Shown: positions 6,358 through 25,466, numbered from the stretch's first letter. The stretch is 64,000 nucleotides of DNA from Nitrospirota bacterium (GCA_023382175.1 JAMCQB010000049.1:2888-66887), one strand, 5' to 3'. Program-made: numbers and translations. The notes: a model not told the origin generated them from the sequence alone.

Positions 6358-6358
6358 C

Positions 6359-11199: not shown

Positions 11200-11244
11200 A
11201 CTTAACCCCTTATTCATCATGCTGTAATATCGCCGGAGTAAACT
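11200..11244 (+). promoter_or_regulatory. Pho-box-like promoter
   Basis: ACTTAAC ccct TATTCAT catg CTGTAAT, then 10 bp, then TAAACT (11239-11244). Confidence 0.5.
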
Positions 11245-11265: not shown

Positions 11266-11481
11266 ATGTGTCCTTTTTGTACTATTAAACATGAACTTTG
11301 CAAAGCCGCCCTGTCATCGTTGATGATAGATAAAGAGCACTGTTCCAGCGAAGCTTATGACAGGTGCGCGATCTTTTTAGTCATCAAAGCAAGGGAGGGA
11401 GGTGATCGAAATGTGTCCAAGTTTCAAGGTGCGGATTTGCGAGGTGGCAGGTATCGAGCCGGAAAGAATACACTGCGCTGA
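11266..11481 (+). CDS. small four-cysteine protein, paralog A1
   Basis: CPFCTIKHELCKAALSSLMIDKEHCSSEAYDRCAIFL aligns with ORF 24561 (CPYF..DVCNASLSSL...FCNSEDYDNCPIFL). It sits directly behind a Pho-box promoter. The RBS is weak and the 3' end is uncertain. Confidence 0.5.
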   Translation: MCPFCTIKHELCKAALSSLMIDKEHCSSEAYDRCAIFLVIKAREGGDRNVSKFQGADLRGGRYRAGKNTLR

Positions 11482-11578
11482 TAAAAATTCCTGTTTAGAA
11501 GAGAGTGGGAGAAATGCGCACCCTGTTTATGGGGGAAGACACCAGCATACAGGTGAACAATTTCTTGTGGACATATAG
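11411..11578 (+). pseudogene. small cysteine protein paralog C1, apparently frameshifted relative to paralog C2 (15297)
   Basis: The first 28 codons are near-identical to 15297 (MCPSF..ICEVAGIEPERIHC.DKN.C). The conserved WEKC(P/A) segment is readable only after a +2 shift near 11500, and that alternative frame stops at 11554-11556. Confidence 0.4.
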
Positions 11579-11732
11579 TGTGGATACCAGGAAATTGTCG
11601 CGCATACCGGCTTTGGCGGCGGCCCTTTAAAAATCGAAAATGGGAAGGCCTGTGGTAAAATGTTAGCGAAGATATAGTAATGGTTTGTGGCGCAATGTCC
11701 GGAATTCGGTTTGCAATACAAGGATGGGTTAG

Positions 11733-12518
11733 ATGGATATAGCAAAGGCATTCATATTGGGTATAGTGGAAGGTGTTACAGAGTTTTTACCGATATCTTC
11801 AACAGGCCATCTTATACTTGCCGGTGATATGCTTGGTTTCACAGGTGAGAAGGCAAAGGTCTTTGAAATCTTCATACAGCTGGGTGCAATCCTTGCGGTT
11901 GTATGGCTGTATCGGGAAAGGGTAGTATCATCCATAAAAGGCATCGGCACAGAAAAGGCAAATCAATTTTTGATGAATCTTTTAGTAGCATTTTTGCCTG
12001 CAGCATTTTCTGGTCTTCTCATGCACTCTTTTATAAAACATTATCTCTTCAGCCCCATAACAGTTGCCTTTGCACTGGTGCTGGGCGGTATTGTTATGCT
12101 CATCATTGAAAGGGCTGCTGGTATCCCAGAGGTTATGGATATTGATAGCGTATCGCTTAAAAAGGCATTCGGCATTGGATTGGCACAGGTCTTATCACTT
12201 TTTCCTGGTGTTTCAAGGGCAGGCGCAACAATAATGGGCGGCATGGTTATCGGGCTTGAGAGAAAAGTCGCCACTGAGTTTTCATTCTTCCTTGCTCTAC
12301 CGACCATGTTCGCTGCAACATCCTATGACTTATTAAAAAACCTGCACAGTTTGAGCGCAAATGATGCCCCTGTTTTTGCAGTTGGTTTCATAACATCATT
12401 CTTTGCAGCGCTCCTTGTTATAAAGGCATTTATCGGTTTTGTCACAAGGCACAACTTCAACTCGTTTGGGATCTACCGCATTGTCTTCGGTATAGTTGTT
12501 CTGGCGTATTACCTTTAG
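11733..12518 (+). CDS. uppP: undecaprenyl-diphosphate phosphatase
   Basis: GIVEGVTEFLPISSTGHL and PGVSRAG motifs, in a polytopic 261-aa membrane protein. Confidence 0.9.
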   Translation: MDIAKAFILGIVEGVTEFLPISSTGHLILAGDMLGFTGEKAKVFEIFIQLGAILAVVWLYRERVVSSIKGIGTEKANQFLMNLLVAFLPAAFSGLLMHSFIKHYLFSPITVAFALVLGGIVMLIIERAAGIPEVMDIDSVSLKKAFGIGLAQVLSLFPGVSRAGATIMGGMVIGLERKVATEFSFFLALPTMFAATSYDLLKNLHSLSANDAPVFAVGFITSFFAALLVIKAFIGFVTRHNFNSFGIYRIVFGIVVLAYYL

Positions 12519-12586
12519 TTGTATCAGACCCTTGTGATTTAACCTATATTTTGCAGAGAAGCTGCGGCTTGGTAGATGATACTAAT

Positions 12587-12632
12587 ATTTAACCCACCTT
12601 TCATAACCCTGTAACATCTATCAATCTATAAT
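12587..12632 (+). promoter_or_regulatory. Pho-box-like promoter of psiE-like gene
   Basis: ATTTAAC ccac CTTTCAT aacc CTGTAAC, then 11 bp, then TATAAT (12627-12632). The ATG lies only 5 nt after the -10. Confidence 0.6.
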
Positions 12633-12637
12633 CACAA

Positions 12638-13078
12638 ATGCGCTTATTCAAGAAAGTCATAGATATAATCGTCAAGCTGATGATTCCCCTTGTAATCCTC
12701 GCTCTGATGATAGGGATTGCAAGGATATTCCTTGATTTGAGAGAGGTTTTCAAGAGTTCGACCATAGCCGGCGGTTTTGACATCATGGTGACGAATATCC
12801 TGTCGATGTTCGTCATCATAGAACTTCTTAAAGGGATCATAGAATATTTTGAGATACACAGGGTGAAGATTACCTTTATTACGGATGCAACATTGGTTTT
12901 TCTTCTCAGGGAAGTCATGATCGGCATATATCAACATAAAATGGGCTGGACTGAAATAATTTCAATTGCAGCGCTGCTCATCGTCATCGGCGGTATAAGG
13001 ACCATGGCTATTGTCTATTCGCCGGACAAGAGCAAGGAGGTGGCTGTCCATGAGCAAGGAACTGATCGAGAGAATTGA
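12638..13078 (+). CDS. psiE: phosphate-starvation-inducible PsiE-like membrane protein
   Basis: 146 aa with four TM segments. The central FVIIELLKGIIEYF...ATLVFLLREVMI pattern is similar to PsiE. Confidence 0.6.
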   Translation: MRLFKKVIDIIVKLMIPLVILALMIGIARIFLDLREVFKSSTIAGGFDIMVTNILSMFVIIELLKGIIEYFEIHRVKITFITDATLVFLLREVMIGIYQHKMGWTEIISIAALLIVIGGIRTMAIVYSPDKSKEVAVHEQGTDREN

Positions 13079-13230
13079 GACCATAATCATAACGGTGGCG
13101 CTAATGGCGGGCGTTTTATTGATCGCTCTCCACTGGAGGTAGTTGCGGGCATTTATGAGGAGCACAAATGTTCATAATTTTCAGTTGATGAAATCATGAA
13201 GGGAGAAAATGGGTAGAAAGAGTTTTCAAA

Positions 13231-13275
13231 ACTTAACCTCTTTTTCATAACCATGTAACATCTTCTCCGTAGACT
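13231..13275 (+). promoter_or_regulatory. Pho-box-like promoter
   Basis: ACTTAAC ctct TTTTCAT aacc ATGTAAC, then 10 bp, then TAGACT (13270-13275). Confidence 0.5.
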
Positions 13276-13324
13276 ATCCCTCAAAGAGAGGAAAGTTTCG
13301 TCAGATGGAAAGGGAGGTGAGCGT

Positions 13325-13507
13325 ATGAAGGCCATTATCGATGCAACTGACAGCGCCTGCATCATTCGCATGTATGGGACAGACGGCGCTCTTTGCGATA
13401 TACATGTCGTGGAAGAGGTTGAATTGAGAGGTGAATATAGGGACGGAGCTGCAGAAATGCAAAGCAATGGACATGAAGATTGTGCAGCGTGCCGGATGTC
13501 CAAATAG
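13325..13507 (+). CDS. small four-cysteine protein, paralog B
   Basis: Preceded by a strong RBS (GGGAGGTGAGCGT). ACIIRMYGTDGALCD aligns with ICQFLKGGSDGAQCS of ORF 15617. The C-terminal CAAC pair is divergent. Confidence 0.5.
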   Translation: MKAIIDATDSACIIRMYGTDGALCDIHVVEEVELRGEYRDGAAEMQSNGHEDCAACRMSK

Positions 13508-13602
13508 GAAAGAAGATGAAAACATGGCAGCGTAACTCAGGCTCCCGGATCAAGACACCGAACCGTTGGAAGGCCGAATGAGTTAGGAAAGGAGGTAAGA
13601 CA

Positions 13603-14829
13603 ATGGATCAGCTTTGTGGCGAATCGCCTCAGGTTGGAAAACTGATTACATCCCGTGAACACCTGCAACCGGATGTTGTTGTCAGAGATGTGGCAGATCG
13701 CTTTTTCAAGTCTTCTGAACTTGATGCGCTGGCCCTTGTTGAGGGGAGAAATCCTCTTGGGCTTGTTACTAGGCCGAAGTTCTTCTTCACGGTGTTCAGG
13801 AGATACGGATTCGAACTCTATGGAAGGAAGCCGATCATTACTATCGCCGATACGGCGCCGCTTCTGATGCATGAGGACGAAAGACTTGATGTCGCGATAG
13901 ACAAGGCGCTGGAGCGGCCCCCTCAGGACGTCTACGACGATATTGTTGTGGTGAATGAGTCCGGCTCATACGCAGGGCTGCTCTCCGTAAAACAGATGGT
14001 AATTCAACAAAGCACTGTGCTCGCAAATAATATCATCCAAAAAGAAATGGTGCAGGCAAAGGCAAAAGAGATAGAGAGGATGAGTGAGTTAAGGTCCCGG
14101 TTTATAGCCCATGTCACCCATGAACTCAGATCGCCGGTGAATGCGATCATAGGACTGGCAGAACTCATACAGGTATCATCCCGGAAGGGTTATATGGAGC
14201 AGATGAAGGACCGCCTCGCGCTTCTCATGTCCAGTGCAACCAACCTCCGGGCTATTGTGACAAACATTCTTGACCTTTCAAAGATTGAGGCCGGAAAGAT
14301 GGAAGTGATAACGGAACAATTCAACGTGGTGACCCTCCTCAACGAGGCGGCGGAAACAACCCGCGTCCTGGTCGGAAATAAGCCGGTTAATGTGGAAGTG
14401 ATTGCGCATGAAGACCCGTTGTTTATGGTTTCCGATCCCGTTAAGATACGGCAGATACTGACCAACCTCCTAAGTAATGCGGCAAAATTTACAGAAAAAG
14501 GCAAGATTCTCATATCGCTCGGCCTTGAAGGAAGCAGGGTGAGAATTGTTGTGAGCGATACGGGGATAGGGATAAGAGAAAATGAGATGGACAAATTGTT
14601 CGTGGCCTTCAGTCAACTGGAAGATACGATGACCAAGAGACACGAGGGAACGGGACTTGGATTGACTATCACCAAGAACTTACTAACCATCTTAGGGGGT
14701 AAGATCACCGTGGCGAGCAATTTTGGGGAAGGAACGTCGTTTACGGTTTTTTTCCCTTTAAATCATATGACAAAGGAGGATAGTTCAGATGGAAGGCAAG
14801 AGAGACAAAAAGATGGTACTGATCATTGA
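13603..14829 (+). CDS. cytoplasmic sensor histidine kinase (CBS-like N-terminal module, HisKA, HATPase_c)
   Basis: H-box FIAHVTHELRSP, N-box LLSNAAKFT, and G-boxes DTGIGI and GTGLGL. No TM segments are present. Confidence 0.85.
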   Translation: MDQLCGESPQVGKLITSREHLQPDVVVRDVADRFFKSSELDALALVEGRNPLGLVTRPKFFFTVFRRYGFELYGRKPIITIADTAPLLMHEDERLDVAIDKALERPPQDVYDDIVVVNESGSYAGLLSVKQMVIQQSTVLANNIIQKEMVQAKAKEIERMSELRSRFIAHVTHELRSPVNAIIGLAELIQVSSRKGYMEQMKDRLALLMSSATNLRAIVTNILDLSKIEAGKMEVITEQFNVVTLLNEAAETTRVLVGNKPVNVEVIAHEDPLFMVSDPVKIRQILTNLLSNAAKFTEKGKILISLGLEGSRVRIVVSDTGIGIRENEMDKLFVAFSQLEDTMTKRHEGTGLGLTITKNLLTILGGKITVASNFGEGTSFTVFFPLNHMTKEDSSDGRQERQKDGTDH

Positions 14830-15178
14830 TGATGACGTGAAACATCTCCTCACTGCGAAGGGTCTTTTGGAGAATATGGGATATGAGGTACGCATACATC
14901 ATTTTGCATTCGGAGCTACTAATGCGGTGAGAGAGACAAAACCGGATCTTGTTTTGCTTGATATGAATATGCCCGGCCTCTCAGGTGAAAGGCTTTCGAA
15001 ACTGCTCCTTTCGAATGGCAAAACGAAGGACATTCCTATTGTATTCTATTCCTCCAATGATGAAGACAACTTGAGGAAGGCCGTGGTCGAATACGGCGTA
15101 AAGGGTTACATCGCCAAAGGAGATATCTTTGAGTTGCGAAAAAAAGTCGCGAGCTATTTGGAGTCGCCGATTGGTTGA
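14789..15178 (+). CDS. single-domain response regulator (receiver only)
   Basis: VLIIDDD, DLVLLDMNMPG and a C-terminal K (KGYIAK) are receiver motifs. An RBS (AAGGAGG) precedes it. It overlaps the kinase 3' end. Confidence 0.85.
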   Translation: MEGKRDKKMVLIIDDDVKHLLTAKGLLENMGYEVRIHHFAFGATNAVRETKPDLVLLDMNMPGLSGERLSKLLLSNGKTKDIPIVFYSSNDEDNLRKAVVEYGVKGYIAKGDIFELRKKVASYLESPIG

Positions 15179-15296
15179 CGGGCACTGCCCTGACGGAAAT
15201 ACTGGAAGTCGTTGTCTCCAGGTCTTACCCCGTGCAACGGCGCCTGCGAAGAACGCCTGAGAAGGAGAAAGCACATACCGGAAGGAGGTGAGCGAA

Positions 15297-15461
15297 ATGT
15301 GTCCAAGTTTTAATAGGCCGATTTGTGAAGTGGCGGGTATCGAACCGGAAAGAATACACTGCACCGATAAAAACGCCTGCATGGGAGAATGGGAAAAGTG
15401 CCCGGTCTTCATAGCCCAATTTTTTGTGGAGGCAGGCATAGCATTTGACAGAGTTGCATAG
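15297..15461 (+). CDS. small cysteine protein, paralog C2 (54 aa, below the ORF-track cutoff)
   Basis: Hand translation gives MCPSFNRPICEVAGIEPERIHCTDKNACMGEWEKCPVFIAQFFVEAGIAFDRVA. A GGAGGTGAGCGAA RBS precedes it. The C-terminal C-x6-CPVF matches the family. Confidence 0.55.
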   Translation: MCPSFNRPICEVAGIEPERIHCTDKNACMGEWEKCPVFIAQFFVEAGIAFDRVA

Positions 15462-15500
15462 GTATTTGTGGAGGTGAAGAAGTTGTAGGGACCTTCTCTA

Positions 15501-15535
15501 AAGAGACCCGGGAAGATTTTCGGGTCTCTTTATTA
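15501..15535 (+). terminator. intrinsic terminator
   Basis: AGAGACCCG / CGGGTCTCT stem followed by TTATT. Confidence 0.55.
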
Positions 15536-15551
15536 CAATTCTGTTACAAAA

Positions 15552-15596
15552 AATTAACCTGGCTGTAATAATCCTGTAACAAAATAGTTGTATCCT
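15552..15596 (+). promoter_or_regulatory. Pho-box-like promoter
   Basis: AATTAAC ctgg CTGTAAT aatc CTGTAAC, then 10 bp, then TATCCT (15591-15596). The geometry and -10 hexamer are the same as at pstS. Confidence 0.6.
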
Positions 15597-15616
15597 TGAT
15601 ACTAAGGAGGATAAGA

Positions 15617-15832
15617 ATGCATCTAAAAAGTGGAGCGATCTGTCAATTTCTGAAAGGGGGTTCTGACGGAGCTCAGTGCAGCGTGGTCGGCAGGTTCATC
15701 AGGCTCATGGAAGACGCCGACATCCGGCTCTGTATGGGCAGACACCATGAGGCATGCTCATACTATGTGCTCTCATTACGGGGACTGGCTCTTAGGGCTG
15801 CGGATCCTGATACTGCATTAGGCACGCGGTAG
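15617..15832 (+). CDS. small four-cysteine protein, paralog D
   Basis: ATG 15617 follows AAGGAGG. The Cys pattern is C-x11-C-x17-C-x7-C (ICQF...AQCS...RLCMGRHHEACSYY). Confidence 0.5.
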   Translation: MHLKSGAICQFLKGGSDGAQCSVVGRFIRLMEDADIRLCMGRHHEACSYYVLSLRGLALRAADPDTALGTR

Positions 15833-15870
15833 AATGTTCCGTCTTTCCTATAAAAGGTGCCCCACCGTGT

Positions 15871-16197
15871 ATGCTTAACGAATTGACGACACAATCTGCA
15901 ACAGGAATTGAGGAGATGAGATGTCCCTCTTGCGATTCCGATGCTATCTATAAGTATGGAAGGGCATGGACAGGAAAACAGAGGTTTCTCTGCATGATGT
16001 GCGGGATGCAATTTACCGGCAATGCCGGGAAGGCAACGGTGAAAGGCAAACCGGCTTGTCCGGAATGCGGGAAGCCCATGAACCTCTATAAGATAGAGGG
16101 TATTGTTGTGCGGTTCAGATGTTCGGGCTATCCAAAATGTAGAACATTCAAAAAATATAGGATGAAGGAGGAGCCAGATGAGCCATTACATCCATAA
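15871..16197 (+). CDS. double zinc-ribbon protein (InsA-like CxxC ribbon plus topoisomerase-type C4 finger), putative DNA binding
   Basis: CPSCDS...GKQRFLCMMCGMQF resembles transposase/InsA-type ribbons. CPECGKPM...FRCSGYPKC resembles the Topo I C4 finger. ATG 15916 is an alternative start. Confidence 0.5.
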   Translation: MLNELTTQSATGIEEMRCPSCDSDAIYKYGRAWTGKQRFLCMMCGMQFTGNAGKATVKGKPACPECGKPMNLYKIEGIVVRFRCSGYPKCRTFKKYRMKEEPDEPLHP

Positions 16198-16549
16198 CGT
16201 CCCGGGAAGATTGAGAGTTAAAAGTCCGGCAGTTAAGAAGAACACGGATGCCGCGGTTGAAATCCGAAAGATTTTGAGCGCCATGAACGGTATTGCAACG
16301 GTCGACATTAACCTCATCACCGGCAGTGTTCTCATTAACTACAATCCGGCGACCGTACAATACAAAGACATTGTAGGCACGCTCCAAAGGAAGGGCTACT
16401 TTGATACGTCAAAGGCGATAACAAATGATCAATACATCCAGAGAGCCGCTTCGAAAGCAGGCAATATCGTCGGAAAGGCTATCTTCGGTACATTTGTGGA
16501 AAAGGCATTCGAAGGGTCGGCTTTGTCATTAATAACATTCTTGATCTAA
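16178..16549 (+). CDS. HMA2-type (cysteine-less heavy-metal-associated-like) domain protein with hydrophobic C-terminal tail
   Basis: H..PGRLRVK...N.ITGSVLINY is the motif shared by three other proteins in this window. It overlaps the upstream ORF. Confidence 0.6.
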   Translation: MSHYIHNVPGRLRVKSPAVKKNTDAAVEIRKILSAMNGIATVDINLITGSVLINYNPATVQYKDIVGTLQRKGYFDTSKAITNDQYIQRAASKAGNIVGKAIFGTFVEKAFEGSALSLITFLI

Positions 16550-16569
16550 TTCTAGATGTCTTCACTCGC

Positions 16570-16890
16570 TCACTTTTCTGCTTCAAGATTTTCTGCCTTG
16601 AGTTTTAGTTCGCTAATTTGACAAAGTATTTTTTCAGAAAACTCAGACTCGCCGAGATCTTTATACTCGGGCATTAATTTCCGCACATCCGGATAGTCTT
16701 TAAATAAAAGTTCCAACATGTTGGATTGTGACCTTGCCAGATCAATATAGGACTTCTTTAGCGCAATATATTTTCCTTTATACGTTGCTAAGTCATTCTG
16801 CGGTTTTTTTTGAAGAGCAATACTCACTATACTTACGATCACGATCAATAGAGCAAAGAATAAATGCGTCCAAACACTTTTGTTTATCAT
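16570..16890 (-). CDS. hypothetical N-terminally membrane-anchored coiled-coil protein
   Basis: One N-terminal TM segment followed by a charged helical region. No family was recognised. Confidence 0.4.
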   Translation of the reverse strand: MINKSVWTHLFFALLIVIVSIVSIALQKKPQNDLATYKGKYIALKKSYIDLARSQSNMLELLFKDYPDVRKLMPEYKDLGESEFSEKILCQISELKLKAENLEAEK

Positions 16891-17004
16891 GTTGCCCTTT
16901 CTTTATTGAAGGTCATATTATCCATGTTTTCAGAGAGTTCAAGCGATTCTTTCTTTTTCTTGTACAGCTCAAGGTATACATCAATCGATATGCCGTCTCG
17001 ATTG

Positions 17005-17721
17005 TCATTTTCCTTCACGAACTCTTTCTGCAAAATAGACGGGCAAACCGGATTCTCCAATGGCCGAAGCCACTCTTTCTAAGTCGTAGGGCGCCCTTAT
17101 AAAATCGGTTTTCACGCCTTCGGGCAGACATTCGACGAGGGTCAGGCATGCCCGTGTATCCCCATCCTTCGGCTTTCCGACGCTGCCGGCATTGATGAAT
17201 ACCTTGCCGTCCACATCCCTCCTGTATGGAATATGGGTATGCCCGTAAATCAAGATACCCGCCTTTGCCTTGTCCGCCATTTCGAGAAAAAATTTATCTT
17301 TCCGGTCCTGGTGCCAATAGAGGTTATTCTTCAGAGGCGTAGCATGGAATATCTTGACCGTTCTTCCATGACAGGAGAAAGCGATCTCGAACGGGAGGCT
17401 TCTCATATATTCCTTACTTTTCCCCGAGGCATGTTTTTTTGTCCACTCAAAGGCCAGCGCCGCCATCTCCTCCTGAAGGGGATTCTCATATCTGCACCCG
17501 CAATGCTCCTTATTATTGCCTACGGCTTCATCATAGTTGCCCTGTACTCCCTCGATTTTATGTTCCACAAGGAAATCGACTACCTCATTCACAAATGGCG
17601 CATAGCCTCCGACGTCGCCGAGGTGATACAGCTTATCCACTTTCTGCAAAACGGCTGTCTCACATACCGCCTTTAATGCCTCGATATTGCCGTGAATGTC
17701 TCCTAGTATTCCGAGTTTCAT
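17005..17721 (-). CDS. metallophosphoesterase (calcineurin-like, YfcE/MJ0936-like)
   Basis: GDIHGN, GDVGGY, GNYD and GHTH motifs. Confidence 0.85.
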   Translation of the reverse strand: MKLGILGDIHGNIEALKAVCETAVLQKVDKLYHLGDVGGYAPFVNEVVDFLVEHKIEGVQGNYDEAVGNNKEHCGCRYENPLQEEMAALAFEWTKKHASGKSKEYMRSLPFEIAFSCHGRTVKIFHATPLKNNLYWHQDRKDKFFLEMADKAKAGILIYGHTHIPYRRDVDGKVFINAGSVGKPKDGDTRACLTLVECLPEGVKTDFIRAPYDLERVASAIGESGLPVYFAERVREGK

Positions 17722-17790
17722 CCGCCGATCTCCTTATACCAACAAAGTAATTGCATCGCAGCTCGCGTTCTTTACTATGATTGCTCATCA

Positions 17791-18054
17791 TCAGGTGCGA
17801 GACTTGCCTCTTCTGACGCTCAACACGTATTCAACCTTTCTGCTTACCAATATAGGCAAGAAATCTTTGACCCTTGCATTTCTTTTGAAACCCTTCAGCA
17901 CTAACTCATAAAGCTTCCCCACTTCTTCGAGTGACGCGCCGATACGCCCTGCAACTGTCTGCATGGCGTTTAGATGGCGCAGTCTTTCGGGTTCATCTTC
18001 ATAAAGCGCATGAAGATGAACATTCTCATCCTGCGAGGTACCCTTTACAGCCAT
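17791..18054 (-). CDS. small hypothetical protein, possibly DUF3562-like
   Basis: 87 aa. The C-terminal LYE...ARVKDFLPILVSRKV pattern is reminiscent of DUF3562, recalled from memory only. Confidence 0.35.
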   Translation of the reverse strand: MAVKGTSQDENVHLHALYEDEPERLRHLNAMQTVAGRIGASLEEVGKLYELVLKGFKRNARVKDFLPILVSRKVEYVLSVRRGKSRT

Positions 18055-18115
18055 GGCAATTTCTTAAGAACGGTATTCATTAAGATCACGGTGACCAATT
18101 TCCATACTCGTGTCT

Positions 18116-19315
18116 TCAACCTTTCAACTCCCGTATTCTGTCTGTCAATTCCCAGGGCAGCCCTATATCCATTCTGCCCACATGTCCATATACTGCAAGC
18201 CTTCTGTAAAAACCGCCCTTAACAATGGAGGGCAGGTACCGCAGATTGAACTGTTTTATTATTCCCGCAAGTCGAAAGTCAAAATGCCTCTCAATGAGTT
18301 CTGCAATCTTCTCATCAGAGGTCTTCCCTGTGCCAAAGGTCTCTACCTGAACACTCACCGGCCTTGAAAGACCTATAGAATAGCTGAGATGTATCTCGCA
18401 TTCCTCTGCAAGCCCTGCTGCTACCACATTCTTTGCCGCATATCTGGCGGCATATGCGCCTATCCTGTCTATACGCATGGGGTCTTTTCCGCTCAGGGCA
18501 GAGCCGCTGTGCCGGGAATATTCTCCATAGGTGTCTATGGCATTCTTTCTCCCTGTTAAGCCTGAATGGACAGAAGGACCACCAACTATGAACGGCCCGT
18601 CGGGATTTATGAATATCCTCGTGTTTGTATCAGGTTTGATCTCCTCATCGGCGAATACAGGGTTTACAACAGCAGCCCTTATATCGTCATGCAGTTTCTT
18701 TAAATCAGGACCGCCTGATGCTAACGGTTTGTTCTGGCTCGCGATCACTGTAACACTGTGAATACTGTAAGGCCTGCCATCCCTGTATTCCACTCCTACC
18801 TGTGTTTTCCCGTCAGGTGCAAGATAGGGGAGTATCTTCTGGAGCCTGACAGAGGTCAGTTTTCTTGCAAGCCTGTGAGCGAGCCAGATGGGAAGGGGCA
18901 TAAAAGATGCGGTCTGGTTGCAGGCAAAGCCGAAGACAGTGACCTGATTCCTGACAGGGATATTATCCATCTCCTCCTCCGATAGCTCTCTCTCATCAAG
19001 GCAGCAATGCTCATCTGAAGGCAATTCCTTGAGGCTTGTTACAATGCTGCAGGTCTTGCCGTTAAAGGCATGCTGGTCATAGCCGATCTGGTTTATAACC
19101 TGTCTTGCTATATACGGGAAATCTACAATGGCATTGGATTCAAACCTTGCTGCTATAAAAACTATGGCTGTGGATACAGCACACTCAGCAATGACCCTTG
19201 AAAATGGGTCCTGCTGAAGGAAATGATCTACAAGGGCATCGCTTATCTGGTCACAGAGCTTGTCAGGGTGTCCTTCTGTTACAGATTCTGATATAAAAAT
19301 AAAGTCCTTTTTCAT
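18116..19315 (-). CDS. S-adenosylmethionine synthetase-like protein (divergent MetK paralog)
   Basis: The N-terminal SESVTEGHPDKLCDQISDA and GLTGRK..DTYG...SGKDP..DR.GAYAARY are clearly MetK-like. The GAGDQG signature region is replaced. Confidence 0.8.
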   Translation of the reverse strand: MKKDFIFISESVTEGHPDKLCDQISDALVDHFLQQDPFSRVIAECAVSTAIVFIAARFESNAIVDFPYIARQVINQIGYDQHAFNGKTCSIVTSLKELPSDEHCCLDERELSEEEMDNIPVRNQVTVFGFACNQTASFMPLPIWLAHRLARKLTSVRLQKILPYLAPDGKTQVGVEYRDGRPYSIHSVTVIASQNKPLASGGPDLKKLHDDIRAAVVNPVFADEEIKPDTNTRIFINPDGPFIVGGPSVHSGLTGRKNAIDTYGEYSRHSGSALSGKDPMRIDRIGAYAARYAAKNVVAAGLAEECEIHLSYSIGLSRPVSVQVETFGTGKTSDEKIAELIERHFDFRLAGIIKQFNLRYLPSIVKGGFYRRLAVYGHVGRMDIGLPWELTDRIRELKG

Positions 19316-19329
19316 TTAGCACCTCATTG

Positions 19330-19407
19330 CTTAAGGTTAAGGTTGAGGCTAAGGTTAAGAATTACAAATTTTTAATCTCTCTTAACCTAAACCTTAACCT
19401 CAACCTG
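19330..19407. repeat. hexamer-based palindrome (TTRAGG)n / (CCTYAA)n between the ATPase stop and the metK-like start
   Basis: ttaagg ttaagg ttgagg ctaagg ttaaga, then a loop, then tcttaacc taaacc ttaacc tcaacc. The right arm includes the ATPase stop codon. Confidence 0.6.
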
Positions 19408-22400
19408 TTCTTTTTGTGCCTTCATTCACTAACAATGGCATCACCGCACTGCCTCCAATCACAATACCATCGAGGATACCTATGGGAGCCAATCCCAAAA
19501 GATTTCGGAGCCCTGGTAGCGCCATGGCAAGAAGCTGTACGGCAAAGGAACCTCCGAGGGCGATATTGAGATATTTATTGGGCAGTAGTTTTTCCTTATC
19601 AAATATAGAATGCTTCTCGGAGCGGCAACTTATGGCGTGGAGAAGCTGACCTGCGGTAAGGCTCATAAAAGCCATGGCGCTTGCCTTCTGTCCCATACCG
19701 TATCTCATCACGCCATATCCATAGGCCCCCAGGGTCCCCGCGGAAATCACTGCGGATTCAAATGTGATTCTTTTGAAATCCGACGTCTTGACGATCAGTT
19801 CTTCAGGATCCCGTGGAGGCTGGCTCAGCACATCAGGTTCAGGGGGTTCGAGGGCAAGGGCAAGACCCGGCGCTATATCGGACATAAGGTTGATCCACAG
19901 CAGCTGTATCGCACTGAGAGGTTGACCGAGCCCCCCTGCAATAGCAGTGAACATAACCATGATCTCGCTCAGATTTGTCGACAGCAGGAAATGGACGGAT
20001 TTCCTGATGTTGTTATAGATGGTCCTTCCCTGGCTTATGGCGATGATCATCGTTGCGAGTTCATCGTCTTCGATGACAACGTCTGCGACTTCCCGGGCAA
20101 CATCGGTGCCCACATGTCCCATTGCGATGCCTATATCCGCTGCTTTGAGGGCAGGGCCGTCATTAATACCATCTCCCGTCATGGCCACAATCTTTCCCGC
20201 ACCCTGGAGCGCCTGAACTATCTGGAGCTTATGGGCAGGACTCACGCGCGAAAAAACATGCACCCTCTCGCAGAGCGCCTTCATCACTTCAGGGTCGATA
20301 CTGGCAAGGTGAGCGGAATCAAGGATCTCGAGTTGTTCGCCATTGCTGAGGTTCAATTCCTTTCCTATGGCATAGGCGGTCGGGCTCTGGTCGCCGGTTA
20401 TCATGACCGTCTCAATCCCTGCCCTGTGAAATTCCCCTATCAACCCCTTCACGCCTCCTCTGACCGGATCAGCCATTCCTACAAGACCCAGCCACACAAG
20501 ATTATCGCTGAAATCGACATCATTATTAAGAAACGCGCCCGGTTCACCATCACTGAGAGAGTACGCCACCCCAAGGACACGGAGAGCCTCCCCGGCCATA
20601 CGCTCATTTTCCGTCTCTATGGCGAGCCGGTCCTCATCGGTCAAGGGAATCTTCCTGCCATCCTTCATATGCCACCTGCACATCGACAGGACCTCGTTCG
20701 GGCTCCCCTTTACGGCAACAAGCGCGGAATGGTTGCCTGCGCGGTGAAGTGTATACATGTAGTTGCGGTTTTCAGAACGATGTTGAATGTTCACCAGGAG
20801 AAATTTTTCCCTGAGTCTTACCACATCGACCCCCGAACTCAATGCTATGTGGATCAGCGCATTCTCCGTAGGAGAACCGTTGACCGCATATTCACCATGC
20901 TGTCCGATCACTTCACTTTCATTGCAGAGAGCCGCTATGTGAATGAGTCTCAGGAGTTCATCGAAGAGATATACACTCGCCGGTTCACCGGACGCAAAAA
21001 ACTGCCCGTCGGATACAGTGAAGCGCCTCATCCCACTAAATGCCGTGACAACAGACATCCTGTTCAGGGTGATCGTTCCTGTTTTGTCGAGGCATATGGT
21101 GTGGATAGAGCCGAGGGTTTCGACCGCTTCGAGTCGCCGTATGAGGACGTTGTGCCTCCGCATATTTCTGATGCCCAGGGCTAAGGTTGTGGTCGCCACT
21201 GTCGGAAGTCCTTCGGGGACGGCGGCGATGGCAAGGGATATGGAGGTTTTGAGCATCTGTAAAAAACCGTATCCACGAAGAAGTCCCGTAACAAAGACCA
21301 GGCCGCAGACAGCGCCGCAGATCAATACCAGTTGGCTGCCCATCATGTCCAGTTGGCGCTCCATAGGGGTTTCAGGAGGTCTTGCTTCACCGACGAGGAT
21401 TTGTATCCTTCCGATCTCGGTAAACCTCCCTGTCGCAACGGCAACAGCAATCCCCTGTCCTCCGACAACAAGTGTCCCCATGTATACCATGTTCGTCCTG
21501 TCAGCGAGGGGGATGTTGTCCCTCTCACCCTCTCCCGCCAGGGGAGAGGGTTTATAAATTTGTTTCCCTCCCCCTTGATGGGGGAGGGTGAGGGAGGGGG
21601 TGGCTGTTGTTTTAACCACAGGCATACTCTCGCCGGTGAGTGCTGACTCATCGATGCTCAGGTGATTGGCTTCAATGAGCCTTGCGTCTGCCGCAACATA
21701 GCTGCCGGGCCTGAGCAGAAGGAGGTCTCCGGGCACTACGTTTTCTGCGCCTATCTCTTTCAGACGACCATCCCGCAGCACTATAGCAGAGGGTCTCACA
21801 AGATTCTTCAGCGAATGGATCGTTTTTTCGGTCTGGCTCTCGGTTGTGTAACCGATGGCGGCATTGATGAGGACTACGCCCATGATCACCACCGCATCTG
21901 CAAGACCGCCGGTGAGGAGCGAAATGCCCGCAGCAGCTCCCAGGAGGGCGACAGGAAGGGATTTGAACTGGTTGATGAACATACTCAGCCCTGAACGCGG
22001 AACAGATTCAGGAAGGACATTCGGACCGTATTTTTTGAGATGTGCCCCGGCGAGGTCGCCGGATAAGCCCGAATCTTTCGACGTGCCGAGAGATTGGAGA
22101 ACCTCGGTCGCCTCAGCAAGATGCCACGGCTCGACTCTCTGGTCCTCGGACCGGATAATGCTTTTCCTTAATTTTCTCCTGCTTCTGAGCTCTCCGCGTT
22201 CCGGGGTCAGGACTTCGCCTGGCCTTGCTTTTTCCGGAAGCGGGTTGTGGACCTTTGCATGTCGAACTTCTTTCCCGGAGCCTGCTGCCACCCCTGGAAC
22301 GGGTAATGAAAAACAAGATGACTGCCTTCCGGCATTTTTTTTGTGAGCTTCGACAACGTCCGCAATGAGCAGGGCTATTGAATGGTGGGGGTTGTCTGAA

Positions 22401-22570
22401 TTAAAGAAAACAAGCACACTCCCGGTCAAAGAGTTTACCGAGAATTTCAGTATCTCTTTATGAGACGACAGACCCCCCTCTATCTCTCTCTTGAGCCTCT
22501 CAGAGCGGTATAGCCCATCTACCTTAAATCGCGCCCTGCCTTTTACAGCAGCATGTATGGGCCGAACCAC
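19400..22570 (-). CDS. P2-type cation-translocating P-type ATPase with N-terminal HMA2-type domain
   Basis: TGES, PEGLP, DKTGTIT, MITGDQ and GDGINDGPALK motifs. The TM5/TM6 motifs STNLSEI and INLMSD resemble SERCA-like Ca-site residues. The N-terminal KGRARFKV...N.LTGSVLVFF is an HMA2-type domain. Confidence 0.9.
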   Translation of the reverse strand: MVRPIHAAVKGRARFKVDGLYRSERLKREIEGGLSSHKEILKFSVNSLTGSVLVFFNSDNPHHSIALLIADVVEAHKKNAGRQSSCFSLPVPGVAAGSGKEVRHAKVHNPLPEKARPGEVLTPERGELRSRRKLRKSIIRSEDQRVEPWHLAEATEVLQSLGTSKDSGLSGDLAGAHLKKYGPNVLPESVPRSGLSMFINQFKSLPVALLGAAAGISLLTGGLADAVVIMGVVLINAAIGYTTESQTEKTIHSLKNLVRPSAIVLRDGRLKEIGAENVVPGDLLLLRPGSYVAADARLIEANHLSIDESALTGESMPVVKTTATPSLTLPHQGGGKQIYKPSPLAGEGERDNIPLADRTNMVYMGTLVVGGQGIAVAVATGRFTEIGRIQILVGEARPPETPMERQLDMMGSQLVLICGAVCGLVFVTGLLRGYGFLQMLKTSISLAIAAVPEGLPTVATTTLALGIRNMRRHNVLIRRLEAVETLGSIHTICLDKTGTITLNRMSVVTAFSGMRRFTVSDGQFFASGEPASVYLFDELLRLIHIAALCNESEVIGQHGEYAVNGSPTENALIHIALSSGVDVVRLREKFLLVNIQHRSENRNYMYTLHRAGNHSALVAVKGSPNEVLSMCRWHMKDGRKIPLTDEDRLAIETENERMAGEALRVLGVAYSLSDGEPGAFLNNDVDFSDNLVWLGLVGMADPVRGGVKGLIGEFHRAGIETVMITGDQSPTAYAIGKELNLSNGEQLEILDSAHLASIDPEVMKALCERVHVFSRVSPAHKLQIVQALQGAGKIVAMTGDGINDGPALKAADIGIAMGHVGTDVAREVADVVIEDDELATMIIAISQGRTIYNNIRKSVHFLLSTNLSEIMVMFTAIAGGLGQPLSAIQLLWINLMSDIAPGLALALEPPEPDVLSQPPRDPEELIVKTSDFKRITFESAVISAGTLGAYGYGVMRYGMGQKASAMAFMSLTAGQLLHAISCRSEKHSIFDKEKLLPNKYLNIALGGSFAVQLLAMALPGLRNLLGLAPIGILDGIVIGGSAVMPLLVNEGTKRTG
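21519..21600. repeat. double-hairpin GC-rich palindromic element inserted in frame in the ATPase gene
   Basis: CCCTCTCCC-gccag-GGGAGAGGG (21528-21550) and CCCTCCCCC-ttgat-GGGGGAGGG (21566-21588). It is translated as ...LTLPHQGGGKQIYKPSPLAGEGERD... Confidence 0.65.
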
Positions 22571-22585
22571 ACCTTTTATCCCTTT

Positions 22586-23266
22586 TTACCCTTCGTTCTC
22601 GGGGTTTTTTTCTGATACGCCTGCTTTCGGAGCCGTTGCTTCTTTTCGAGCGCCTGTAACGGCTGGTCTCGGTTTCGGCAGGGCGGCGCCTGCAACCTCC
22701 TTCACTCCTTCAACAACCCCAACAAGCATATCCTTGACAGCCTTTACCGCGGTATTCCCTATAGTTCCGGCAGCCTCGATCGCCCCTCCCACAGCCACCT
22801 TTGCCACATCTTCCACATTCCCGCCGACTTCCTTGGTTGCTTCGATGACCCCGTCAACCGCCCTCCGCGCAACCATGGCAACATCAGCGCCTACCTCAGC
22901 AGCACCTTTGACTGCGCCCTTTACCGTCTGGCTGGCAACGGTCACGACATCTCCGCCGACATCGCTCACTCCCATGACGACACCCTTCGCAACGCTCTTT
23001 GTGCTTAAAATGAGGCCTGTGCCGACCTCTTCCGTCGCCTGAATCGCACCCTTTACCACGTCTCTTGTAATGGTAACTGCTTCATTGGCCACTGAACCAG
23101 TGGCTCTCAGAGTGTTGGAAACGGTATTCCTCACCAGGCTGACGATTTCAGCCTCGATCTCGTTGATGCCCTTGAGGCTGCTCACGACACCTTCTTTTAC
23201 TGCTGTTCCTGCCTTGCCGATTCCTTCGCCCATCGGGCTTTCCTCTATGACATGCTCATTAGACAT
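22586..23266 (-). CDS. tandem 22-residue repeat protein (about 7-8 repeats), unknown function
   Basis: The start is set at ATG 23266, behind GAGGAGG. The repeats are TRDVVKGAIQATEEVGTGLILS / TKSVAKGVVMGVSDVGGDVVTV / ASQTVKGAVKGAAEVGADVAMV / ARRAVDGVIEATKEVGGNVEDV / AKVAVGGAIEAAGTIGNTAVKA, and so on. Confidence 0.6.
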   Translation of the reverse strand: MSNEHVIEESPMGEGIGKAGTAVKEGVVSSLKGINEIEAEIVSLVRNTVSNTLRATGSVANEAVTITRDVVKGAIQATEEVGTGLILSTKSVAKGVVMGVSDVGGDVVTVASQTVKGAVKGAAEVGADVAMVARRAVDGVIEATKEVGGNVEDVAKVAVGGAIEAAGTIGNTAVKAVKDMLVGVVEGVKEVAGAALPKPRPAVTGARKEATAPKAGVSEKNPENEG

Positions 23267-23310
23267 GGGTAACCTCCTCTTTTTCACAAACGTGGGTAGC
23301 TGTTTATCAT

Positions 23311-23333
23311 AAAAACGGAAGGGAAATCCCTTC
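23311..23333 (-). terminator. possible weak terminator/attenuator between the HMA2-TM gene and the repeat-protein gene
   Basis: On the minus strand, GAAGGG-atTT-CCCTTC followed by CGTTTTTAT. Confidence 0.35.
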
Positions 23334-23346
23334 TTCCTCCAGACCG

Positions 23347-23829
23347 TTATGCTGCGACCCCGGCGCCTTGCCCTGACTTGAGGAATATGTTAAATGCGTA
23401 CCAGAAGGCGGCATACCATGGGAGCGCAGTAAGATTTCCTACGCTCATTTGGTATATTCCGGCGCCGAGGAGCAGGAGAAAAGCCAGCCCTCCGATGTCT
23501 ATCTCGCCCCCGGTAAGCGCCACAAGCTGAGTATTCATCCCTTTAAAGGTTTCCGATACCCGCTGCTGCAACCTTCTCGGAGAGGCGTTCAGTCCTTGAA
23601 GGCTGAAAAGATTACCGGCCATGGCGTATCCCGCAATTCTTTCACTATCCAGATCGTGCATCACGAGCAAACTGCCGGTTAAGGCATTGACTTCAACGGT
23701 CTTGATGCCTTCAAAACCGGAAAATCGTTCCTTCAAGCCTCCAAAAAATGCACGATCACCCTTTTTTGAAGGTATCCTGATCCTCAACCTTCCTCTGGTC
23801 CGATGGCTTATATAAGCGCGCGGGAGCAT
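23347..23829 (-). CDS. HMA2-type domain protein with C-terminal transmembrane segments
   Basis: The N-terminal H.TRGRLRIRIP...N.LTGSLLVMH motif and the C-terminal GGLAFLLLLGAGIY...ALPWYAAFWYAFNIFL. Its start overlaps the upstream stop (TAATG). Confidence 0.6.
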   Translation of the reverse strand: MLPRAYISHRTRGRLRIRIPSKKGDRAFFGGLKERFSGFEGIKTVEVNALTGSLLVMHDLDSERIAGYAMAGNLFSLQGLNASPRRLQQRVSETFKGMNTQLVALTGGEIDIGGLAFLLLLGAGIYQMSVGNLTALPWYAAFWYAFNIFLKSGQGAGVAA

Positions 23830-24119
23830 TAAGCGTTTGGTTCGCCTTCCGGCGCAACCGGGGCAGATGCGGCTTTTTCCGCCTCCGAGATCTCAGCTTT
23901 TACCTCGGCTACCAGGTCCTCAACCACCTCACCTACTTCAGCAAAAGTCTCCTTGCCTTTTTCAAAGAGGATAAGTCCTCCCTTTATCGCTGCCTTTGCC
24001 ACCGGTTTTGCCACACCTGCAATAACGGGGAGCACGGCAGGAGCAAGGACAGCCGCCCCTATGCCAATAGCAAGCCCTGTCACAACATTTCCCTTCAGGA
24101 CATCATCAAAAAGTCCCAT
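23829..24119 (-). CDS. DUF5132-like small membrane protein
   Basis: MGLFDDVLKGNVVTGLAIGIGAAVLAPAVLPVIAGVAKPVAKAAIKGGLILFEKG followed by an acidic tail. This matches my recollection of DUF5132 proteins, which are often adjacent to HMA2/P-type ATPase genes. Confidence 0.55.
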   Translation of the reverse strand: MGLFDDVLKGNVVTGLAIGIGAAVLAPAVLPVIAGVAKPVAKAAIKGGLILFEKGKETFAEVGEVVEDLVAEVKAEISEAEKAASAPVAPEGEPNA

Positions 24120-24211
24120 TCCGAGCCTCCTTTCTTTTGTATATCTTTACCATATCACTTTCATCATTTAGCGTCCATGAGTTCTTTCATTACTTGCCTA
24201 CAAGAAGACAA

Positions 24212-24267
24212 ATTTCATTGAAATTTAACGGTAGCTTCATAAGGACGTAACAGTACTGTGGTTTACT
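24212..24267 (+). promoter_or_regulatory. Pho-box-like promoter (four phased boxes)
   Basis: ATTTCAT tgaa ATTTAAC ggta GCTTCAT aagg ACGTAAC, then 10 bp, then TTTACT (24262-24267). Confidence 0.55.
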
Positions 24268-24300
24268 ATGCCCAGGATCAGACGAAAGAGGATGACTGCT

Positions 24301-24564
24301 ATGATGCAGTACAAGATTTTACATCATGTCCCAGGCCGTATCAGGATTGAGGTGCCCTCCATTAAGGGACGTTCCCTGAAGGCTCTAAAGCGATTATCAG
24401 ATATTCCCGTTCCGTGCGGTATAGAGGACATTCGCCCTAATCCCTTGACAGGAAGCCTCTTGATAAAGTATGACCCAGGCCGGATAAATATCGTTTCCTA
24501 TCTGAGGGACATGGCATCCAGGGACGTGATAAACAATGTACTCGACAAAGGAGGTTTGTTATGA
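24301..24564 (+). CDS. stand-alone HMA2-type domain protein
   Basis: HHVPGRIRIEVP...NPLTGSLLIKYDP. The start was moved to ATG 24301 because ATG 24268 abuts the predicted -10. The RBS is AAGAGGA. Confidence 0.6.
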   Translation: MMQYKILHHVPGRIRIEVPSIKGRSLKALKRLSDIPVPCGIEDIRPNPLTGSLLIKYDPGRINIVSYLRDMASRDVINNVLDKGGLL

Positions 24565-24770
24565 ACAGCACCCATAACATTGCATCTATGATACACCTCA
24601 CCAATGAATTGGAATTGCAGTGCCCCTACTTTGATGCATCCGACGTCTGCAATGCCTCGCTCTCCTCATTATTGCCATCGCCGACTATGAGGGTGAATTT
24701 CTGTAACAGCGAAGACTATGACAATTGCCCCATATTCCTGGCTAAGGTCTTAAGAAGGAGGCGGAAATGA
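24561..24770 (+). CDS. small four-cysteine protein, paralog E
   Basis: ATGA start/stop overlap with the upstream gene and an AAGGAGG RBS. The Cys pattern is C-x8-C-x17-C-x7-CPIF. Confidence 0.55.
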   Translation: MNSTHNIASMIHLTNELELQCPYFDASDVCNASLSSLLPSPTMRVNFCNSEDYDNCPIFLAKVLRRRRK

Positions 24771-24958
24771 CATGTCTCGACTATGTGTCCGAAGATTTGA
24801 GATGTCTCAGGGGTATCCCCGTTACTCCAAGGTTCAGCAGCTTCTTCTGTAAAGGAAAACATGAGAAATGTCCTTTGATCATATGGGAGAAATCTCAGAC
24901 AAAGAACCCGGAGATGTTACGGCCGAAATCATTTATCAATATATGGAGGGAACCATGA
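24767..24958 (+). CDS. small four-cysteine protein, paralog F
   Basis: ATGA overlap and an AAGGAGG RBS. The Cys pattern is C-x9-C-x14-C-x6-CPLI. Confidence 0.5.
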   Translation: MTCLDYVSEDLRCLRGIPVTPRFSSFFCKGKHEKCPLIIWEKSQTKNPEMLRPKSFINIWREP

Positions 24959-25134
24959 AATGTCCGCATCTGGCAAAATGGGTCGTGTCTGTCTGTAAGG
25001 CTGTGAGTAATACTTATGTCCCCAGTAACTTTGAGCTTCAAGAGTACTGTAAGACAAAAAGCCATAAGAAATGCCCTTTCTTTTTAAAGAATACAGCCGT
25101 GAAAAGAGAAGCGGATGGCCTGATCTCAGCATAG
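24955..25134 (+). CDS. small four-cysteine protein, paralog G
   Basis: ATGA overlap with F and a GGAGGG RBS. MKCPHLAKWVVSVCKAV...YCKTKSHKKCPFFL gives the pattern C-x10-C-x17-C-x7-CPFF. Confidence 0.55.
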   Translation: MKCPHLAKWVVSVCKAVSNTYVPSNFELQEYCKTKSHKKCPFFLKNTAVKREADGLISA

Positions 25135-25168: not shown

Positions 25169-25213
25169 ATTTAACATCTCCTTAATATTGCTGTAACATT
25201 ACCCTGTTATTCT
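25169..25213 (+). promoter_or_regulatory. Pho-box-like promoter
   Basis: ATTTAAC atct CCTTAAT attg CTGTAAC, then 10 bp, then TATTCT (25208-25213). Confidence 0.5.
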
Positions 25214-25218
25214 ATTTC

Positions 25219-25353
25219 ATGGTAATTATCTTTTTGAGTCTCATCGTTTGCGTAGTCGCCGTGATTATTTTGTTTAAAGCAAGCCCGAATCTTTTTATAT
25301 TCCAGCTTATGGAAAGGGTTTTTGGAGAAATACATTTCAACAAAAGGAAGTAG
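25219..25353 (+). CDS. possible 44-aa single-TM peptide, candidate leaderless ORF
   Basis: The ATG lies 5 nt after the predicted -10. The product MVIIFLSLIVCVVAVIILFKASPNLFIFQLMERVFGEIHFNKRK has a hydrophobic N-terminus. No homology was recognised. Confidence 0.3.
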   Translation: MVIIFLSLIVCVVAVIILFKASPNLFIFQLMERVFGEIHFNKRK

Positions 25354-25410
25354 CGTAAGCATTTTTTTGGCGTGACGAACTAAGAACCGGAAAGGAGGTG
25401 AGATTTCGGG

Positions 25411-25466
25411 ATGTAACAGAAAATTAATCTTCTTGTAACATAATTGTAACAATCAAAATGTATCCT
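25411..25466 (+). promoter_or_regulatory. Pho-box promoter of pstS (four phased boxes)
   Basis: ATGTAAC agaa AATTAAT cttc TTGTAAC ataa TTGTAAC, then 10 bp, then TATCCT (25461-25466). Confidence 0.7.

Follow-up and report, generated by a model that had tools for sequence, protein, structure and literature searches.

We analysed a 64,000-nucleotide stretch of DNA from a Nitrospirota bacterium (GCA_023382175.1, JAMCQB010000049.1:2888-66887; referred to below as the window), focusing on a set of small open reading frames (ORFs) between positions 11,266 and 25,134 that encode proteins with four spaced cysteines. The original prediction, made from the sequence alone, held that eight such ORFs (A1, C1, B, C2, D, E, F and G) form one paralogous family and that every copy lies in a transcription unit preceded by a Pho box. 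All eight are present on the plus strand where they had been placed, and the family is genuine, coding and paralogous, with four invariant cysteines, but it is smaller than proposed: profile matches and alignments give six intact members (A1, C2, D, E, F and G), one decayed copy (C1) and one non-member (B). The window is near-identical to a second assembly, the Nitrospirae/Thermodesulfovibrionales metagenome-assembled genome (MAG) GCA_023485285.1, with 99-100% protein identity over shared genes.

The four-cysteine genes and their coding status

From the window copies and their homologues we built a family hidden Markov model (HMM), together with subfamily HMMs for A, C, D, E, F and G; the family HMM matches seven of the eight ORFs, B being the exception. 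The A-type gene A1 (11266..11481, +; A-subfamily HMM E=1e-35) has its conserved core in residues 1-38, with cysteines at positions 2, 12, 26 and 34, and a tail that runs into the start of C1; orthologues such as P0008, P0011 and P0035, among others, retain the cysteines. The intact C-type member C2 (15297..15461, +; C HMM E=7e-37), labelled a hypothetical protein (P0005) in an NCBI MAG, carries five conserved cysteines and is the last gene of a unit made up of B, a histidine kinase (HK), a response regulator (RR) and C2. The D-type member (15617..15832, +; D HMM E=1e-44) opens a unit with a zinc-ribbon gene (ZnRib) and a CoBaHMA gene and shows the layout C-x11-C-x17-C-x7-C with the C-terminal motif CSYY. 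E (24561..24770, +; E HMM E=3e-39), with 17 close orthologues and 29 genome loci, has the signature CPY..C.AS.SS..C..EDYDNCPIFLAK.LRRR and a basic C-terminal tail. It is followed by the F-type gene (24767..24958, +; F HMM E=1.5e-45) and by G (24955..25134, +; G HMM E=2e-47), whose signature is MKCPHL.KW..C.A..Y.PS.F.L.EYC..K.H.KCPF. A longer, 88-aa form of G starting at the ATG at 24868 was rejected: it overlaps the conserved C-terminus of F, and most orthologues start with MKCPHL, so that the start at 24955 is preferred.

Shine-Dalgarno sites read from the sequence are strong (GGAGG-type) for every one of the eight ORFs except A1, whose site is weak, in agreement with the strong sites predicted for most copies. 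ATGA stop/start overlaps join E to F and F to G, as the proposed translational coupling requires, and a further one joins E to the preceding HMA2c (24301..24564, +; Pfam HMA_2), a small CoBaHMA (HMA_2) protein gene that is the first of the HMA2c-E-F-G unit. Across the family the cysteine spacing is C-x7-11-C-x11-17-C-x6-7-C, with no conserved CxxC. The stricter pattern originally given for all eight ORFs, which extends beyond the last cysteine, is matched exactly by five (A1, C2, E, F and G) and by none in 100 window shuffles, whereas D ends in CSYY, C1 lacks the last cysteine and B does not fit. An alignment of 136 sequences has exactly four invariant columns, all cysteines; within every orthologue group (A, C, D, E, F and G) these four are invariant, unlike the N- and C-termini.

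Comparison with orthologues in other genomes indicates that the four-cysteine ORFs are protein-coding genes under purifying selection, because the proportion of nonsynonymous differences (pN, 0.07-0.44) lies well below that of synonymous differences (pS, 0.44-0.91). For E, the corresponding ranges are 0.24-0.38 and 0.71-0.88. The ratio of nonsynonymous to synonymous rates (dN/dS), which had been put forward as a check of the original prediction, likewise points to purifying selection on the coding sequence, with values of 0.07-0.45 where dS is unsaturated (0.11 for C2 against locus L005, 0.13-0.20 for F, and 0.07 for G against L006). The expectation that automated annotation would miss some copies was borne out in part: C2 (54 aa), D and E are publicly called, but F and the short form of G are missed in some assemblies and called in others.

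C1 (11411..11578, +) was tried as an intact gene and rejected. DNA alignment bears out its near-identity to C2 over about 28 codons, and its first 29 codons are intact; beyond them lie indels or a frameshift, the last cysteine is out of frame, and the sequence EWEKC appears in another frame. Since the C HMM matches C1 only at model positions 1-29, with indels downstream, and the A-C pair is present and intact in the relatives L041 and L043, C1 is probably a decayed copy, that is, a pseudogene, or, less likely, the product of an assembly error. A second trace of the C type may lie at 25380-25415, where CCGGAAAGGAGGTGAGATTTCGGGATGTAA resembles the C-type Shine-Dalgarno and start region ACCGGAAGGAGGTGAGCGAAATGTG; this segment encodes only ATG TAA, overlaps the pstS Pho boxes and may be the remnant of a lost C-type copy.

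B (13325..13507, +) is a separate conserved small ORF. Its membership was rejected, as the family HMM does not match it and its orthologues lack conserved cysteines: the two N-terminal cysteine positions are occupied by Y/L and C/Y in the orthologues of L005 and L006. The alignment of B with D reported in the original prediction is therefore spurious, and the similarity coincidental. B has a motif of its own, MKAxIE..Y.I.IYG..G.L.D..VVD.VE (window 13325-13423; L005 414-512; L006 663-830), with a dN/dS of 0.20 over 33 codons against L005, and invariably has psiE and a strong Pho box directly before it. The L005 copy forms an in-frame fusion with a C-type gene, and the L006 copy is followed by another Cys-rich ORF.

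Relationships and distribution of the family

To relate the subfamilies, we compared enriched subfamily alignments profile against profile with hhalign. On the resulting probabilities, E, A and G firmly group as one family (E-A 98%, E-G 95%, A-G 86%), to which C and D probably belong as well (C-D 76%, A-C 75%, G-D 68%, E-C 63%, E-D 48%); E/G intermediates also exist, for example P0193 and P0239. F reaches 0.1-14% against the other subfamilies, and its homology to the remaining copies, which the original prediction had assumed, is not demonstrable by sequence; F is possibly related, being linked by its cysteine pattern and by its conserved position in the gene order. Thus A1, C2, D, E and G combine a profile match with four aligned invariant cysteines and a length of 55-90 aa, F joins them by pattern and synteny only, C1 does so partially, and B does not.

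When 5.8 billion proteins were searched with a profile, 59 matched; all are annotated as 'hypothetical' and lack Pfam domains, and they fall into the six orthologue groups A, C, D, E, F and G. Among 1.84 billion cluster representatives (50% identity clusters), an exhaustive HMM search yielded 648 clusters at E <= 1e-3, almost all of 55-90 aa and stand-alone, without fusion to other domains; the only long matches among them are low-complexity repeats. The named matches belong to Nitrospirota and some Thermodesulfobacteriota. In one genome per GTDB species, scanned with an E-only alignment as query, 29 loci were found, 28 of them in Nitrospirota MAGs and one in a MAG assigned by binning to a Desulfurococcales archaeon. 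The latter, the only match outside Bacteria, is a 156-aa ORF with an E-like C-terminal module (L034 5728-6198; ..RYDNCPIFLAF..) and could have been misbinned or represent a divergent fused form.

Scans of all eight ORFs against Pfam and NCBIfam gave no match, and a Pfam scan of 52 diverse members gave isolated weak matches only (the best being DUF7838, two members, E=0.001). A sequence profile search of the PDB found no relative; its best match, Nanos (E=0.24), was rejected. Two further, word-indexed protein searches contributed few additional names; the one label in them other than 'hypothetical', an automatic JGI 'predicted sulfurtransferase' on P0229, was not trusted, as nothing else supports it. 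Searches of the literature on DUF3562, on small Cys-rich Pho proteins and on Pho boxes in sulfate reducers yielded nothing on the four-cysteine family. The original prediction had not recognised the proteins as WhiB, rubredoxin, metallothionein or an anti-sigma ZAS motif; the family is indeed absent from Pfam, NCBIfam and PDB sequences, and the four-cysteine proteins appear to form a previously undescribed family divided into ancient subfamilies: E, A, G, D, C and possibly F.

Pho boxes and gene neighbourhoods

We scored Pho boxes in bits with a position weight matrix (PWM). The boxes are 18-bp sites built from two 7-bp TGTAACA/TTTCATA-like direct repeats with 11-bp spacing, located in the position of the -35 element about 35-65 nt before start codons, and PWM sites precede every four-cysteine unit in the window. 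TGTAACA-type direct repeats occur 11 times against 0.6 expected, an 18-fold enrichment. A strong box, TTTCATAACCATGTAACA (13243..13260, +; 26.4 bits), conserved in L005, stands before B-HK-RR-C2, and a cluster of TGTAACA-type repeats (15531..15581, +) before D-ZnRib-HMA2a reaches 27.1 bits with 0 mismatches at its best site (15564-15581). Another strong box just downstream of G (25181..25198, +; 23.7 bits) precedes a 44-aa peptide gene and pstS; it is identical in L007 and near-identical at the equivalent position in L010, L014 and L020, and further PWM sites before pstS lie at 25423 and 25434. The remaining two sites are a weak Pho-box-like sequence, ATTCATCATGCTGTAATA (11212..11229, +; 11.6 bits), which ends 36 nt upstream of A1 and is conserved in L041, and a moderate one, CTTCATAAGGACGTAACA (24235..24252, +; 13.1 bits), in the divergent promoter region upstream of HMA2c-E-F-G. 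These two would not stand alone, because about 8 chance matches at >= 9 bits are expected.

The claim that every copy sits in a Pho-box unit nevertheless gains from an association kept across about 30 other genomes, even though the boxes before A1 and HMA2c-E-F-G are weak. Of 30 other loci, 21 have a box scoring >= 12 bits no more than 75 nt upstream of a four-cysteine gene, often with separate boxes before E and D. Linkage to core Pho genes (pstSCAB-phoU, psiE, phoH, phoA and phoBR-like pairs) is conserved in Nitrospirota and in more distant lineages; phoBR itself is absent from the genes of the window. The four-cysteine proteins are real and new as a protein family, and the placement of their genes in the phosphate-starvation (Pho) regulon, under PhoB control, is well supported by comparative genomics.

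The genes recur in arrays. E-F-G is found in the window, L007 and L011, in each case with the order HMA2c-E-F-G, and the order E-F-G is also kept within the C-D-E-F-G array of L006; E-D occurs at many loci, and E-G, E-C and E-C-D at others. At ten loci (L006, L007, L010, L011, L013, L014, L018, L028, L030 and L031) the array lies directly upstream of pstSCAB-phoU. D is followed by ZnRib-HMA2a at 10 of the 29 scan loci (L009, L016, L019, L022-L025, L032 and L033, with L026 at a distance), as well as in L041 and the window. Other recurrent neighbours are PsiE, PhoH, phoBR-like pairs and an operon of MetK, a P-type ATPase, a 233-aa repeat protein, HMA_2 and DUF5132. More distant members show comparable surroundings: L040 and phoB-phoR-pstS are arranged divergently; in L039 (Thermodesulfobacteriota) a 26.8-bit box stands 49 nt upstream of the four-cysteine gene and a phosphate porin gene (Porin_O_P) comes after it; L037 and L044 lie beside DUF3562, PsiE and GT21, with L044 forming a D-G-E array behind a double box; and L038 lies within a lipid-remodelling operon.

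Between B and C2 the window encodes a soluble 408-aa histidine kinase (13603-14829, +; Pfam HisKA and HATPase_c) and a 129-aa receiver-only response regulator (14789-15178, +; Response_reg annotation), co-transcribed with them, a synteny also seen in L006, L015 and L026. Folding identified an intrinsic terminator (15499..15532, +) with a 15-bp stem and U-rich tail (-28.1 kcal/mol, z = -2.9) that ends the B-HK-RR-C2 unit; a scan of the window for consensus promoters and terminators did not rise above shuffles. Downstream of D lie a 108-aa double zinc-ribbon protein (15871-16197, +; Pfam, InsA/IS1595-like) and HMA2a, a CoBaHMA/HMA_2 protein (16178-16549, +; Pfam). The zinc-ribbon gene is translationally coupled to HMA2a and almost always follows a D-type gene; its product could serve the module by binding DNA or RNA.

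These units are part of a phosphate-starvation island at about 1.6-30 kb of the window that contains PHP, GT21, PhoH, ferredoxin and aldehyde:ferredoxin oxidoreductase (AOR), HIT, alkaline phosphatase (phoA), BacA, PsiE and pstSCAB-phoU; the remainder of the window holds housekeeping genes. Between the four-cysteine units, a conserved cluster on the opposite strand (16570-24119, -) encodes DUF5132, a CoBaHMA (HMA_2) membrane protein, a 233-aa repeat-rich protein without a Pfam match, a 1056-aa P2-type cation ATPase with an N-terminal HMA_2, MetK, DUF3562, a Metallophos phosphoesterase and a 106-aa orphan. The set recurs in other Nitrospirota, and two small HMA_2 genes lie nearby in the window (16178-16549 and 24301-24564, +).

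Three further observations concern genes behind Pho boxes. Between G and pstS, behind the box at 25181-25198, a gene at 25219-25353 (+) encodes a 44-aa single-helix membrane peptide with the motif PNLFxFQLxExxFG, conserved in L007, L010, L014, L020 and L028; public callers annotate an antisense 81-aa ORF instead (25207-25452, -), a call that is probably wrong. A strong box at 5522-5539 (27.1 bits) precedes genes for a 4Fe-4S ferredoxin and AOR and then a HIT-family gene (5605-8347), making the ferredoxin-AOR unit a candidate for an unusual member of the Pho regulon. Downstream of a box at 1622-1639 (26.2 bits) lie genes for a PHP-domain protein and a GT21 glycosyltransferase (1690-3610); GT21 adjoins four-cysteine genes in L037, L044 and L045, a context that suggests synthesis of phosphorus-free glycolipids under phosphate starvation.

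Possible functions and known systems

We lean towards a reading in which the family consists of PhoB-controlled cytoplasmic proteins that hold a tetrathiolate metal centre (Zn or Fe-S) and serve as partner-specific adaptors. A core of about 45 residues would fold around one metal centre, Zn(II) or Fe-S, held by the four invariant cysteines; wide spacing, missing CxxC knuckles, Cys-Pro contexts and anaerobic hosts do not decisively favour one metal over the other, although they leave Fe-S no less probable than Zn. The C-terminal helices differ between subfamilies (basic for E, hydrophobic for C, aromatic for D, RPKSFxNIWR for F) and would dock each paralogue, or a hetero-oligomer, onto different partners, with the co-transcribed CoBaHMA and zinc-ribbon proteins and the adjacent orphan kinase/receiver pair as candidates. 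Through such docking, a metal- or redox-dependent step would become coupled to phosphate starvation.

Several points weigh against this adaptor reading. AlphaFold2 models of E, with three short helices around the cysteines, are of too low a confidence for interpretation (pLDDT of only 60 with a 56-sequence alignment and 57 with a 52-sequence alignment), and a Foldseek search of the PDB returned 0 matches. The original prediction had suggested a Zn or Fe-S knuckle; the alignments contain no CxxC/CxxCG knuckle typical of Zn ribbons. The proline after the first and fourth cysteines (Cys1 and Cys4) is not invariant, D having CQ and CS and some C-type members CR, CK or CN, and one F orthologue (L011) carries serine at Cys4. 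On the regulatory side, the boxes before A1 and HMA2c-E are weak compared with the 24-28 bits of the strong boxes, and a distant Desulfuromonas member (L035) has no Pho context. We infer partner docking purely from gene order.

If the cysteines were instead thiol switches or Cys-Pro heme-binding sites, the proteins might act during phosphate starvation as sensors of redox state, sulfide or heme, which we regard as unlikely. Cys-Pro-hydrophobic sequences form the consensus of heme regulatory motifs, which the usual context of Cys1 and Cys4, [KNQM]-C-P-[FYHILV], resembles; moreover, C-x8-10-C followed by C-x6-7-C recalls twin-CxnC helical hairpins, and the low-confidence AlphaFold models are mostly helical. 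In E, A and G both Cys1 and Cys4 carry the CP dipeptide; in F Cys4 alone does (Cys1 being CL), and in C it is found at Cys1 and most Cys4 positions. Against this reading, D-type proteins lack both CP motifs, apart from a few with CP at Cys1. All four cysteines are invariant, and the two without proline are as invariant as those in CP contexts. Thermodesulfovibrionales and Thermodesulfobacteriota, whose MAGs supply the named matches, are anaerobes, in which cytoplasmic disulfides are unlikely, and no heme biosynthesis or uptake genes were found among the locus neighbours.

It is similarly improbable, in our estimate, that the proteins are metallothionein- or ArsD-like buffers or chaperones for metals or metalloids, handing their cargo to the P-type ATPase/CoBaHMA system. 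That cargo would be As(III) derived from Pst-imported arsenate, or Zn, Ca-associated metals or Fe freed by polyphosphate mobilisation. The genes adjoin pstSCAB and would be co-induced with it, several paralogues occur per genome, and the P-type cation ATPase with its N-terminal HMA_2 and three other HMA_2 proteins are adjacent. Yet each protein offers one four-cysteine site and a cysteine fraction of about 6-8%, implying a small capacity, and the strong subfamily-specific conservation outside the cysteines suggests specific protein contacts rather than bulk binding. No ars genes lie nearby in the window or in the locus neighbourhoods, and CoBaHMA lacks the CxxC metal site of classical HMA (bioRxiv 10.1101/2024.07.07.602159).

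Somewhat more doubtful still is a speculative extension of the adaptor reading, in which E, D, G, C and F would be soluble Fe-S or Zn sensor/adaptor subunits of a phosphate-starvation module with CoBaHMA proteins, DUF5132, the repeat-rich 233-aa protein and the P2-type cation ATPase, controlling mobilisation of an intracellular Ca/Mg-polyphosphate or mineral store. If true, it would tie the function-less CoBaHMA systems, found with cyanobacterial CaCO3 inclusions, to phosphorus economy in anaerobes.

Two readings can be regarded as effectively excluded. That the genes encode precursors of ribosomally made, modified or secreted Cys-rich peptides is very improbable: small size, cysteine richness, multiple copies and tandem arrays would fit, but sequence inspection reveals no signal or leader-core architecture, the whole core is conserved and the N-termini are variable, and across 40 loci no maturation enzyme, protease or exporter is conserved alongside, radical SAM being only sporadic. 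That they are chance ORFs or non-coding leaders of Pho operons, as their very short length, the weak Shine-Dalgarno site of A1 and the degenerate C1 and B tail might suggest, is scarcely credible given pN far below pS, invariant cysteines, hundreds of homologues of the same length and a pattern found in 0 of 100 shuffles.

Few bacterial stress responses have been studied as thoroughly as Pho regulons, though mainly in aerobes and model organisms. What is added here is a conserved, multi-paralogue, unannotated family in uncultured Nitrospirota and some Thermodesulfobacteriota, linked to pstSCAB-phoU as tightly as psiE or phoH. The four invariant cysteines suggest that phosphate starvation involves a metal- or redox-dependent step, one that is absent from current models, and the link to CoBaHMA, DUF5132 and the P-type ATPase offers a testable physiological context for these orphan domains. 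With its clear signature, the family deserves a Pfam or NCBIfam model, as the genes are otherwise called 'hypothetical' or missed.

Among known systems, Cys4 zinc ribbons, rubredoxin and the ZAS anti-sigma factors resemble the family in having four cysteines within about 45 residues, with a single tetrahedral site possible. They were rejected as candidates since the two CxxC or CPxCG knuckles of the former are absent, with isolated Pfam matches (1 of 52 members each, E >= 0.005), and neither the HxxxCxxC motif of ZAS nor a Pfam zf-HC2 match is present. Metallothioneins were set aside because there are only 4-5 widely spaced cysteines per 55-70 residues. The WhiB-like (Wbl) Fe-S proteins of Actinobacteria are likewise small and stand-alone, with four invariant cysteines, several paralogues per genome and membership in stress regulons, and by analogy the four-cysteine proteins may work as metal-cluster adaptors. 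They are not WhiB-like themselves, since the Wbl motif C-xn-C-x2-C-x5-C and the G[VI]WGG turn are absent, there is no Pfam match, and the phyla differ. Twin Cx9C (CHCH) proteins such as Cox17 share two cysteine pairs spaced by 6-11 residues and a predicted helical structure, but they are disulfide-stabilised proteins of the eukaryotic intermembrane space, whereas the present family is predicted to be cytoplasmic in anaerobes, with a spacing other than x9/x9 and no detectable homology.

Other parallels concern biological role and gene context. E. coli IraP is a small protein, induced by phosphate starvation, that binds the response regulator RssB. Connectors and anti-adaptors of this type are, like the four-cysteine proteins, small and associated with phosphate starvation, and the four-cysteine genes adjoin an orphan kinase and a receiver-only regulator; IraP itself has no sequence similarity to the family and no Cys4 site. 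In Microcystis, HMA_2 and DUF5132 neighbour ccyA, a CaCO3 biomineralisation gene (bioRxiv 10.1101/2024.07.07.602159), and HMA_2, DUF5132 and cation transporter genes here adjoin the four-cysteine genes. Unlike the window, the cyanobacterial ccyA cluster is tied to intracellular CaCO3 and has no reported small four-cysteine proteins or Pho boxes (bioRxiv 10.1101/2024.07.07.602159). The E. coli Pho regulon (pstSCAB-phoU, phoA, psiE and phoH) differs from the window in that the units of the window include small four-cysteine proteins and the regulator lies outside it. We know of no Pho regulon described so far that contains such proteins, and searches of the literature found none. The two systems are alike in their 18-bp repeat boxes and in the genes themselves, with the four-cysteine genes of the window interleaved with those of the classical regulon.

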